In this document: one piece after another, positions 2,920 to 11,964 of the stretch
Layout of the letters: every line of letters starts with the position of its first letter
How positions within the stretch are numbered: the first letter of the stretch is position 1
Source: Candidatus Bathyarchaeia archaeon
Lineage (GTDB): Archaea > Thermoproteota > Bathyarchaeia > TCS64
Assembly (NCBI GenBank): GCA_050014495.1
Contig: JBEKDF010000057.1
Location: 1 to 12,147 of the forward strand
DNA length: 12,147 nt
Reading direction: 5' to 3'
Made by a program: the position numbers and the translations under genes
Notes under the pieces: generated by a model
Seen by the model: the letters and a program-made list of their open reading frames with translations, nothing else
What the model was told of the DNA's origin: nothing
Database searches by the model: none

Positions 2920-3058
2920 GGAATAGCGCATATAGCGTGCCATCGGGGAGTTATTCCGGGCATCTCGTCGCCTTTGATGCCGTAGCCTCCTAAACCCCTC
3001 CTTCAATCGGCGTCCGCTGTGGTAGCGCGCGCAGTAGATTCTTTAATAGTCCCTACTG

Positions 3059-5272: not shown

Positions 5273-5329
5273 TCAATGATGATATTAATTTTTCGTCAAA
5301 GAACAAATTGAAGTAAATATCATCATTGA
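5273..5329. promoter_or_regulatory. perfect 14-bp inverted repeat (TCAATGATGATATT / AATATCATCATTGA, 29-nt spacer) in the divergent MFS-ridA promoter region
   Basis: 5273-5286 and 5316-5329 are exact reverse complements. Each arm overlaps an outward-facing TATA-like element (minus: CGAAAAATTAATA; plus: GAAGTAAATA). Confidence 0.7.
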
Positions 5330-5413: not shown

Positions 5414-5770
5414 ATGACTGAACTGAAAAGAGTCACCACCCCTATAGCTACTCAAAGGCGGTCGCTGTGGGAGACCTCATATTCCTCGGACTACACCGTG
5501 GCAATAGTGACGACTTCATTAAACAATTCGATGATGCCATGAGAAACGTAGCTGAGACACTAGCAAAATTCAATCTCCCGCTGACCAATCTCACAAAAGT
5601 GAAATATATGGCTTAGAAACATCAACGATCTCCCTGAGATAGAAAAGCGTTTCAATAACTACTTTGATAAGGATGCGTTCCCCGCGAGGATGACATCTAC
5701 GACAGAGTTCATCAATAAAGACTGCCTTCTAATGATTGATGGCGTAGCTTATCGAAAGCAGACATCCTAG
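5414..5770 (+). pseudogene. RidA/YjgF/UK114-family protein interrupted by two compensating single-base frameshifts (pseudogene or sequencing error)
   Basis: Adding one base at CCCC 5439-5442 and removing one A at 5602-5604 gives a 118-aa protein: MTELKRVTTPYSYSKAVAVGDLIFLGLHRG...LTKVNIWLRNINDLPEIEKRFNNYFDKDAFPARMTSTTEFINKDCLLMIDGVAYRKQTS. It has the Rid motifs YS.AV..GD..F, KV.I.L, F...FPAR and the terminal .IDGVA. SD-like AAGGA upstream. As read, stops fall at 5540-5542 and 5614-5616. Confidence 0.85.
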
Positions 5771-5847
5771 TCACTTCCATTATCCATCTTACCCTCTGTT
5801 TCCCAGTAACGACGCTGGTGTGCGCGCGCTATTCACGATGTGCACGC

Positions 5848-5870
5848 CTTGATTCTCAAATGAATCATGT
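5848..5870. repeat. dyad site copy A: CTTGATTCT-CAAAT-GAATCATGT
   Basis: 19/23 identical direct repeat of 6545-6567; core palindrome TGATTC-N6-GAATCA; lies 35 nt beyond the HTH-CBS stop codon. Confidence 0.75.
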
Positions 5871-5905
5871 AATGTTGCGCATGCGCATCACGGCCCGCTG
5901 CGAGC

Positions 5906-6565
5906 CTAATTCACAATCAGCTTCAACAAATCCGACCTCGTGATGATGCCCCTCACCTCCCCCAAATCGCTCCTAAGCAAGATAGCGTAGAAATGGACCA
6001 ACATCTGAGCGACAACGATCAACGACTCATCATCCGGGCAATCCACAATACCTTCGATCAACCCAGAGTCCCGAATCAGTATCGACCTTATCTTAGAACG
6101 ATCTTCACAAAGAGGCTCCCTGGGAGATGGCAGAAGCATCTTCAGAATCCCTAAATCAGTCACCACACCAATCCAATTACCATTGGCCCTGCTCTTAATC
6201 GGAATCTGACTGAAACCAGGCCCCATCATCTTAACAACCAGCCCACCAATCGACTCATCATCGTAAGCGAAAACCAGATCCTCACCAGTCGTCGCATAAT
6301 CAATTGCTCTCAAATCAGTTGGAATCAGAGACCTCTTCTGTAGAAGATACTGAACAATTTTCTGCACCTCATTATACTTGAATTCCCTACCAACCTTTAG
6401 GCTCCTAGATATGAGTGGCTGAGGAATGTCTAACTCATCCTCCAAACTTCGCTGAGATATCCCCAACTCACGCATCTTCTCATCGATAAGCTTCGTAAGT
6501 TTTTCTTCCGGAATTAATGGGAATAATTCCTCCATAATCATCATCTTGATTCTATCAAGAATCAT
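5906..6565 (-). CDS. transcriptional regulator with N-terminal XRE/Cro-type HTH and a C-terminal CBS-domain pair (archaeal COG3620-like architecture)
   Basis: HTH: KMRELGISQRSLEDELDIPQPLISRSL. CBS1: LVFAYDDESIGGLVVKMMGPGFSQIPI...WIGVVTDLGIL. CBS2: PDDESLIVVAQML...VRGIITRSDLLK. The true start is more likely ATG6544, 6541 or 6535. Confidence 0.88.
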   Translation of the reverse strand: MILDRIKMMIMEELFPLIPEEKLTKLIDEKMRELGISQRSLEDELDIPQPLISRSLKVGREFKYNEVQKIVQYLLQKRSLIPTDLRAIDYATTGEDLVFAYDDESIGGLVVKMMGPGFSQIPIKSRANGNWIGVVTDLGILKMLLPSPREPLCEDRSKIRSILIRDSGLIEGIVDCPDDESLIVVAQMLVHFYAILLRSDLGEVRGIITRSDLLKLIVN

Positions 6566-6567
6566 GT
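6545..6567. promoter_or_regulatory. dyad site copy B: CTTGATTCT-ATCAA-GAATCATGT, candidate autoregulatory operator
   Basis: Contains TGATTCT-N4-AGAATCA and an overlapping TCTTGAT-N3-ATCAAGA (6544-6560). It sits between a minus-strand TATA-like TAATAT (6574-6569) and the probable HTH-CBS start codons. Confidence 0.7.
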
Positions 6568-6613
6568 GATATTAGAGTATTACCTCAAGCATCATTCATA
6601 AGAGTGAGGAGCA

Positions 6614-7108
6614 ATGTACGAAGGAAAAAGTGACAAGACTCCGAAGAATGATACTGATCTCAAACTGATAGCATCCACCCTCAGAGTTTACCTAGAGAAG
6701 CTAGACAGGGAGATCAAGAACATCGAGGTGTTCATCCCTGAGAAACAGGACCGTAACCCACGGAAACACGAACTCGCCCAAGCCGAGGGCATCAGGTACG
6801 CCGCCCGAGAGCTGTTGAAGGTCCTAGGAATGAAGACTACCTGGCTCGAAGAGACCCAGATGGCAGAGAAGCAGTCGAAGGGCTACAACAACTTCAGCTA
6901 CGACGATCCAGACGGCACATTCTATTTCGGCTACTTCAAGAGCAAGAAAGCCTTCGTAGATGCCTACCTAGGGGAGACGGGTAACTGGGGCAGCAGGAGC
7001 GAGAGAGGTTGGGTGAACGAGCGCGTTGGCACATTCGATGAGGGCAAGTACGGCGTGGAAGCCTGGGTGAACTTAGAGAAGCTCTGCAAGAAGGAACTGC
7101 TGGAGTGA
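6614..7108 (+). CDS. hypothetical protein (164 aa), first gene of an operon divergent from the HTH-CBS regulator
   Basis: Strong SD GTGAGGAG at 6604-6611; protein-like composition; GTGA overlap with the next gene. No family recognised. Confidence 0.75.
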   Translation: MYEGKSDKTPKNDTDLKLIASTLRVYLEKLDREIKNIEVFIPEKQDRNPRKHELAQAEGIRYAARELLKVLGMKTTWLEETQMAEKQSKGYNNFSYDDPDGTFYFGYFKSKKAFVDAYLGETGNWGSRSERGWVNERVGTFDEGKYGVEAWVNLEKLCKKELLE

Positions 7109-7446
7109 GCTCCGATATGAACACTAAAAAACGTGCACACGCAATTGACGAGCCAAAATATGCCCGTGCTTATCGAATAACAAATCCGAGTGACCGTAGG
7201 AAAGTCACTGTATACACGGCGAAGTGGTGTGATGTTTGCAAGAAGCAGGTGCCGATGATACAGACGTTAGCCCAGATGTACGGTTTTACCGTTGAATTAG
7301 TCGACGTCGACAGCGAGGATCTGGATGTACAGAAGAGGGCCCAGTACATCCGGTTTGTGCCATATATTGAGTACCTTGGACTTGAGATCAGCTTCAGCGA
7401 ACTGATGGATGTAATCAAAGAAACAGGGGGAGCAGGCGTTGGATAG
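7105..7446 (+). CDS. thioredoxin/glutaredoxin-fold protein (WCDVC)
   Basis: KVTVYTAKWCDVCKK is a beta1-CxxC-helix; ELVDVD is beta2; IRFVPYI is the cis-Pro loop. Overlaps both neighbours. The start could be ATG7117. Confidence 0.85.
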   Translation: MSSDMNTKKRAHAIDEPKYARAYRITNPSDRRKVTVYTAKWCDVCKKQVPMIQTLAQMYGFTVELVDVDSEDLDVQKRAQYIRFVPYIEYLGLEISFSELMDVIKETGGAGVG

Positions 7447-7828
7447 AATCGAAATACTGCTTGATGTCCTCGAGGCAAACGGATTCCCTAGTATTAGATC
7501 GAAGATGCGAGAAAGGGAGGACGAGCTCATGAGAGGCGCCACGTTTAGGAATATTCTAAATGCAGAGGAGATAGAGGTTGTCAGGAAGGTACTAAGAGAG
7601 TTCAAAGTTCCAAGTCCAACTGGCTGGGCACACGCAATGATGGTTCACGGAATGCGCCAGGACATCGAGAGATTCTCAGAGGACAATGTCTACGATTATA
7701 CGGAACTCTGTAACCTCAGCTTCACTCTTAGAGAAGCTGGTTTGGCGGACAAGGAAACCTGGCGCAAAATCGAGAACGCTAAAAATTCAATGAAAAAATA
7801 CACGCACGCAACTTGGAGGGATTCTTGA
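7439..7828 (+). CDS. hypothetical protein (129 aa, probably alpha-helical)
   Basis: TTG start overlapping the thioredoxin stop, preceded by GGGGGAG; charged helical composition. No family recognised. Confidence 0.7.
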   Translation: MDRIEILLDVLEANGFPSIRSKMREREDELMRGATFRNILNAEEIEVVRKVLREFKVPSPTGWAHAMMVHGMRQDIERFSEDNVYDYTELCNLSFTLREAGLADKETWRKIENAKNSMKKYTHATWRDS

Positions 7829-7898
7829 TGAGCGCTTGGGGATAAATCAGAAATAATTCGAAATTTGTTTGATACAACATTAGGCTGCGCGCACTTGG

Positions 7899-11285: not shown

Positions 11286-11405
11286 GGCGATAAAGAGGCT
11301 CAACTAGATAAAGTCATAGCCCCAAAAAAAGCATCCATGGACCGTACAGAGCCCATACTCTTGCCGCGCGCGCGGATTTTGCTGATCTTAACCATCATCA
11401 GGCGA

Positions 11406-11941: not shown

Positions 11942-11964
11942 CCCGTTCGCGCGCGCCATCTAGT

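Follow-up and report, generated by a model that had tools for sequence, protein, structure and literature searches.

Why should one regulator gene carry what looks like the same protein-binding site on both of its sides? In the window, by which we mean the whole stretch of 12,147 nucleotides from a Candidatus Bathyarchaeia archaeon analysed here, an HTH-CBS regulator gene lies between two copies of a 23-bp sequence, copy A at 5848-5870 and copy B at 6545-6567, which were reported in a first-pass annotation and which we confirm. All four mismatches between the copies fall inside the central 5 nt, as had been described, and 18 of the 18 flank bases are the same, including 3 beyond each arm of the dyad TGATTC-N6-GAATCA. 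A repeat finder extended the direct pair to 29 nt (5848-5876 and 6545-6573, 79% identical, 697 bp apart). The stop codons on either side of copy A do converge, with that of a RidA-like gene at 5768-5770 and that of the HTH-CBS gene at 5906-5908.

The dyad pair is not due to chance. Under an order-3 Markov model, 0.22 exact cores are expected per genome and 1e-5 in a 140-bp gap, and the expectation for both 9-bp flanks occurring twice in the window is 5e-7. The window holds no third copy, in agreement with the earlier reading: a search that allowed up to two mismatches returned two matches, both exact. Copies A and B were also the only exact occurrences of TGATTC-N6-GAATCA in a scan of the whole 3.1-Mb genome. 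With one mismatch there are eight further genome sites, similar to other spacer lengths, and the other 15 spacer lengths (0-15) give five exact genome matches summed. No TGATTC-type regulon is evident, as a matrix scan of the genome was topped by the two window sites and the rest formed a smooth background. Among 18 genomes of the genus, the exact dyad was found only in the source genome (G000) and in G016, the two that have the close subfamily of the regulator. The second exact match in G016 (L054) is set aside as likely chance: it lies at the very beginning of an ORF, within the first codons, and the scores of its flanks are -16 and -26.5.

The regulator gene and its own promoter comprise the following features:

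5906..6535, minus strand: regulator with an XRE-type HTH and a CBS pair, 209 aa when counted from the probable start codon (from domain, homologue and model comparisons)
6547..6564, unstranded: copy B, main operator O1, 11 bp 5' of the likely regulator start, an offset kept in orthologues
6569..6574, minus strand: TATA-like box TAATAT, 4 bp outside O1 (from alignment; putative function)
6577..6594, unstranded: O2, a weak and putative second operator facing the divergent genes, at a distance of 30 bp from O1

The encoded protein is of a type that we take to be arCOG00608 / COG3620. Its N terminus is of the XRE/HTH_3 type: eight of the 18 subfamily members examined gave an HTH_3 match, at E 1.1e-6 in the best case, the window protein itself giving none, PHROG repressor matches were weak, and the N terminus is four-helix in the predicted model, with Gln residues in helices 2 and 3 of the HTH. 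The C terminus is a CBS pair, with Pfam CBS detected in 16 of the 18 members and matches to CBS pairs in both sequence and fold. Structural matches cover the CBS part only and none is full-length among the hits listed, which include 3fv6, a CBS structure of CcpN. The second CBS motif retains the Asp of GIITRxD, presumably an adenosyl-ligand site, and the first CBS motif does not. A single-protein scan of genome contigs gave no match. The subfamily is patchy: with a cut-off of E<=1e-30, matches come from 5 of the 71 genomes of the family and 7 of the 401 of the class, the source genome included. It is separate from a resident paralogue family present in most relatives, to whose members its identity is 22-31%. 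The TGATTC group forms one side of a 98/100 branch, with few independent lineages and long branches. A resident HTH-CBS paralogue lies directly 3' of a deoxyhypusine synthase gene and an eIF5A-like gene (L099:2206-4280; the eIF5A label is our own reading).

Copy B had been placed between a TATA box and the start codon. A TATA-like box of putative function, at a position that is AT-rich in orthologues, agrees with this, and the start needed correction from 6565, where the ORF finder put it inside copy B, to 6535. Most homologues begin at the equivalent of Met11, so 6535 is the likely start, and copy B consequently lies 11 bp upstream of it. The dyad holds a fixed promoter position across orthologues, as expected of an autoregulatory operator: with at most two mismatches in 12, it begins 29-32 nt before the start in seven of the eight orthologous loci with upstream DNA (L039-L045 and L047), a count drawn from few close orthologues that are non-independent kin, five of nine metagenome loci being from one assembly. 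The eighth locus, L041, has the left arm only. Left out of this count were L038, which is the window DNA, L002, L031 and L049, which are the L047 locus, and L046, a 39-residue match without a gene start. Over 36 pairs of orthologous operators, identity is 0.82 in the arms and 0.39 in the spacer, and second sites are found 30-33 bp further upstream in L039, L041, L042 and L047.

A shorter form of the core, ATTC-N6-GAAT, was found with at most one mismatch in the 100 nt preceding 19 of the 26 resident paralogues, 15 times exactly, where shuffled sequences give 1.5; downstream it was found for none of the 26. Part of this conservation may reflect the core promoter, since in our own reading the dyad there overlaps BRE/TATA-like sequence. 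None of six more distant module-type regulators has the core upstream and three show other dyads near the start, these six representing few independent lineages. Four distant module-type regulators (L003, L004, L005 and L034) have differing recognition helices and, in L004, L005 and L034, the upstream dyads differ from the TGATTC type. They provide a small natural set for studying helix-operator specificity.

Conserved arms around a free spacer had been interpreted as the mark of a protein-binding dyad. For copy B, with its conserved position and free spacer, we agree, and the comparisons make it very probable that copy B is the autoregulatory operator of the encoded XRE-HTH/CBS protein. The interpretation does not carry over to copy A, because any two orthologous operators show the same arms-kept pattern, which is thus no proof of selection on copy A. 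Cross-binding by the resident paralogue is not supported: with a matrix that includes core-promoter bases, copy A scored at most 3.9 and copy B at most 5.6, versus 24.3 for the paralogue's own site. The second-best resident-type dyad in G000 (L222:1143-3262, G000:C1 about 191066) lies between an MTA-phosphorylase-like gene, which falls below curated cut-offs, and a divergent TFB gene. This location would suit a resident paralogue that acts in the SAM cycle; the other high-scoring resident-type sites in G000 show no link to the methionine/SAM pathway. A bacterial promoter scan was uninformative.

What, then, is copy A? The features around it are:

5818..5829, unstranded: alternating purine-pyrimidine run ending in (CG)4 (5822-5829), likely the scar of a cut sister HTH-CBS gene
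5830..5836, minus strand: candidate start-codon stub, GTG 13 nt after copy A (11-14 nt in orthologues); a tentative assignment
5838..5847, unstranded: mixed alternating run that adjoins copy A at its left end and may be a scar or an ancestral leader
5850..5867, unstranded: copy A, an exact TGATTC-N6-GAATCA dyad that we interpret as a relic operator (from the scans and the lack of a downstream counterpart in orthologues)
5868..5876, minus strand: decayed TATA-side flank of copy A, AACATTACA in the gene direction versus AATATCACA in copy B
5873..5890, unstranded: second, weaker dyad-like site (matrix score 14.6; 39 genome positions above 14)

A dyad downstream of the gene was found in none of the six orthologues with downstream DNA (L039-L042, L045 and L047) and in none of the 26 resident paralogues; at L005, a distant locus, a core with one mismatch lies 82 nt downstream. 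In none of the orthologues and paralogues examined is the gene flanked by a site at either end at once, and on this point the proposal of conserved paired operators that loop the regulator gene fails the check suggested along with it. In a relative of about 93% identity (80 differences over 5874-7074), contigs stop matching at 5874 and continue into unrelated DNA, an edge seen in three runs (X22, X23 and X24) that probably belong to one campaign. The absence from these runs of any contig covering 5351-5873 is no evidence when taken by itself. In the relative, the unmatched DNA next to 5874 may be the end of an insertion sequence, but a short stretch of this DNA found no match in G000. Near-identical strains retain copy A: the X19 contig 5734-5932 spans it, with two other letters, and X11 reaches 5858; retention in strains so close carries little weight. 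Against 70 further genomes of the family, the DNA from ridA to copy A gave one 27-base hit and nothing that amounts to a real match.

The sequence around copy A resembles a promoter. Read in the gene direction it consists of TGATGC, an alternating run, the decayed 9-mer listed above, the dyad, 13 nt, GTG AAT A and (CG)4, and copy B, L039 and an orphan control region in G016 consist of TGATGC, 15 nt, an AT-rich 9-mer, the dyad, 11 nt and the start. In the weaker dyad-like site, the half TGATGC (5885-5890) is what promoters of the copy-B type have as the outer half of their second operator, and a mixed alternating run (5876-5888) overlaps this site. Scored against 27 non-arm columns from nine true promoters, the non-arm flanks of copy A gave p=0.0035 in the gene direction and p=0.81 reversed, and the 10-nt upstream flank gave p=0.023. 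The flank score of copy A, 1.3, is below that of eight of the nine true promoters (leave-one-out). Its spacer shares five of six bases with L045, four of six with L041 and two of six with copy B. Based on the flank scores and the spacer match, copy A appears to be a fragment of a homologous promoter, for which a sister copy is a likelier source than copy B. A short local duplication of copy B in the source lineage, followed by drift, would account for the sameness of the 18 of 18 flank bases, but four of six spacer bases differ while the arms are intact, and neutral drift would not concentrate changes in this way; the closer similarity of the spacer to other orthologues also argues against such a duplication, which we regard as quite improbable.

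A relic promoter-operator of a lost leftward gene was one of the possibilities raised in the first-pass annotation, together with an antisense RNA into ridA. The former is the best reading of copy A. The flanks of copy A face leftward like those of copy B, as an active leftward transcript would need, but the counterpart of the TATA box has decayed and is broken up by an alternating run, and no leftward frame of more than 22 codons starts between 5741 and 5849. That copy A drives antisense transcription into ridA is therefore very unlikely.

An operator standing beside a dead gene is seen directly in the relative G016. There, an orphan control region (L056) is 82% identical over 103 bp to 6494-6596 and keeps the exact dyad and, on the divergent side, a homologue of the 164-aa protein described below, and its HTH-CBS gene has a stop in codon 2 and extends for just 13 codons before a (CG)5 run cuts it off. 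This orphan operator may be served in trans by the intact regulator of G016. Taken together, the absence of copy A in relatives, its promoter-like flanks, the nearby (CG)4 and the orphan operator of this relative lead us to read copy A as a relic promoter.

All 12 arm bases of copy A are intact and the second dyad-like site lies 23 bp away, and selection would explain these too. Copy A could be a working auxiliary operator gained in this lineage, from which an A-B oligomer would loop the 697-bp gene or at which converging read-through would be blocked. Such a role would suit the exact arms, the presence of two sites at copy A, as at copy B, and the retention of copy A in near-identical strains. 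It is unlikely, however, in view of the lack of a downstream site in 6 of 6 orthologues and 26 of 26 paralogues, the break at 5874 in the relative of about 93% identity, and the G016 orphan, where exact arms persist beside a dead gene. Rather improbable, too, is that copy A and its weaker neighbour were captured from a dead sister module and now form a distal operator pair through which an adenosyl-sensing XRE-CBS repressor loops its 0.7-kb gene; if so, deletion scars would have been caught creating a new regulatory loop in an archaeon.

The relic reading of copy A includes deletion scars, and (CG)n runs occur in the window at 3025-3033, 5818-5829, 7886-7894, 11365-11374 and 11948-11956. In noncoding DNA, CG runs of at least 8 nt number 364, versus 3, 27 and 89 under order-1, -2 and -3 models, an enrichment of more than 100-fold under the order-1 model; runs of other dinucleotides number 20-41. 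When the genome was compared with 240 kb of G016, 22 of the 98 ends of shared blocks had a CG run no more than 15 bp away (random noncoding positions, 3.8%). Pure CG runs are found at 32 of 132 truncation junctions within the genome, a few of them counted twice, versus 3.5% of random noncoding 26-mers and 6 of 132 intact partners, and some CG runs flank DDE_Tnp_1/DUF772 insertion sequences. The two runs touching copy A are mixed runs, with the pure run about 20 bp away. Mixed runs are about fourfold enriched in noncoding DNA, show no enrichment at G016 block ends (2 of 98 versus 1.9%) and have a weak tie to truncations (6 of 132 versus 1.6%). Noncoding 29-mers abutted by mixed runs on both sides number 36 in 489,271, a figure chosen after the fact.

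CG-run counts among relatives range from 0 to about 430. A Ku gene lies beside that for a LigD primase-polymerase in the source genome (L076/L077; G000:C3:65798-67394), and 16 of 61 genomes have Ku and 16 have LigD, almost all of them members of this genus. Ku/LigD was rejected as the maker of CG runs, as its presence does not follow run counts across the 61 genomes: no Ku was found in G021 (182 matches) or G029 (123), and Ku is present in G001 (0) and G010 (1). An integron attC reading of the downstream DNA, made by eye, was dropped once CG runs proved to be genome-wide.

Decay is also apparent on the other side of copy A:

5414..5770, plus strand: RidA-like gene, frameshifted in the source strain (from three-frame translation and sequence reading)

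This gene is decaying in several ways, with compensating 1-base indels at 5438 and 5602 in the near-identical strain X11 and, in strain X19, a 231-bp deletion whose joint carries an insert of six C/G letters (seen in a single contig, at depth 3.5). Between an MFS gene and ridA, a 19-bp inverted repeat (5273-5329; 89% complementary) is possibly a separate operator.

On the opposite, divergent side of copy B, the regulator is accompanied by small genes with which it forms a module:

6614..7108, plus strand: first of the divergent genes, encoding a 164-aa protein without a recognised family (no match in Pfam, NCBIfam or PHROG; four relatives found)
7105..7446, plus strand: thioredoxin-fold CxxC protein
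7439..7828, plus strand: 129-aa protein of no known family, accompanying the module in L043, L044 and L047
7886..7894, unstranded: CG-rich alternating run, right edge of the module

Atlas searches with the 164-aa and 129-aa proteins gave no usable match. The divergent gene set is variable, consisting elsewhere of subsets of these genes, a phosphatase-like protein or an AAA ATPase, and the host genes flanking the module differ between near-identical copies. In the relative from one run, the last two genes are swapped for 879 other bases. One module copy adjoins a tRNA-Ser gene (L031:11798-11882), one distant copy is near a tyrosine integrase, and broken copies are common. Another copy adjoins what by eye is an apparent 5S rRNA gene (L032, 5600-5700 region). 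From this patchy spread, the varying neighbours, the tRNA-Ser gene, the integrase and the broken copies, we infer that the module is mobile or formerly mobile. This fits with the listing of arCOG00608 in Table 1 of PMC6563490, where it is among the 20 commonest families of thaumarchaeal integrated mobile elements (9 counts). Viral contigs contained no relative, and none of the 80 viral motif loci examined, out of 121, encodes a module protein. Within the source genome, two HTH-CBS fragments and one intact distant paralogue are found (G000:C9:903-1124, C33:20238-20399 and C19:39690-40322). Both fragments end at CG-rich runs, and the genome suggests repeated gain and loss of the HTH-CBS module in G000.

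A mobile module makes it natural to ask whether the two dyads are the core sites at which a recombinase excises or inverts a cassette, as had also been proposed. The arm-spacer-arm shape would suit such sites, as would the mobile appearance of the module and the distant relative near a tyrosine integrase. Yet the two spacers share only two of six bases, and homology edges in relatives fall at 5874, 5901, 6494 and 6596, never inside a spacer. On the strength of the spacer mismatch and the breakpoint positions we reject recombination sites, which are highly improbable; the core also precedes resident paralogues, and there is no recombinase among the window proteins scanned. No joint of an empty site or excised circle was found in eight runs, all of them contigs, which drop rare forms.

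Our combined findings make it probable, as far as sequence comparison can tell, that copy B is the operator of its own gene and that copy A is the relic of a deleted sister module without a conserved role. In this scheme, a predicted regulator dimer would bind O1 between the TATA box and the start and repress its own promoter, and binding to the weaker O2, 30 bp away, would shut the divergent small genes as well. An adenosyl ligand at the intact second CBS site (G-I-I-T-R-x-D) would tune DNA affinity. A sister module with the same orientation would once have followed immediately downstream; its genes and part of its promoter would have been lost through deletions whose joints were closed by CG runs, leaving a relic of about 60 bp. 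Copy A would then still bind the protein and have no conserved role. The gene bracketed by operators is not a conserved system. What looks like a striking pair of sites can be left behind by the turnover of modules.

We found no published binding site for the HTH-CBS family in a search outside which lay most subscription papers, supplements and RegPrecise, and the accessible portions of PMC6563490, PMC6471742 and PMC2872624 contain none for this family. A literature search on CcpN gave no match. For an archaeal HTH-CBS family that is uncharacterised, our analysis predicts where the regulator binds and how the promoter is laid out, in a concrete and testable form; the resident and mobile branches of the family have the ATTC-N6-GAAT core in common. 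The window regulator is like arCOG00608 proteins in its N-terminal XRE-type HTH and CBS pair, whereas, compared with the resident copies, its subfamily is longer and patchy and has the outer operator bases TG..CA.

Beyond the archaea, the Bacillus subtilis CcpN protein is an HTH plus CBS repressor modulated by ATP/ADP. It resembles the window regulator in the fusion of an HTH to a CBS pair, with a structural match in the CBS part only, but the HTH class of CcpN differs from the XRE type, and its site and targets differ as well. Autoregulated XRE repressors with tandem operators and divergent promoters are known from lambda CI/Cro and from the C proteins of restriction-modification systems. Unlike lambda CI, the window regulator has an archaeal TATA promoter, a CBS sensor in place of the protease domain, and no conserved distal operator like OL. 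What it shares with lambda CI/Cro and the C proteins is a dyad at its own promoter, a weaker second site about three helical turns away, and Gln in helices 2 and 3.
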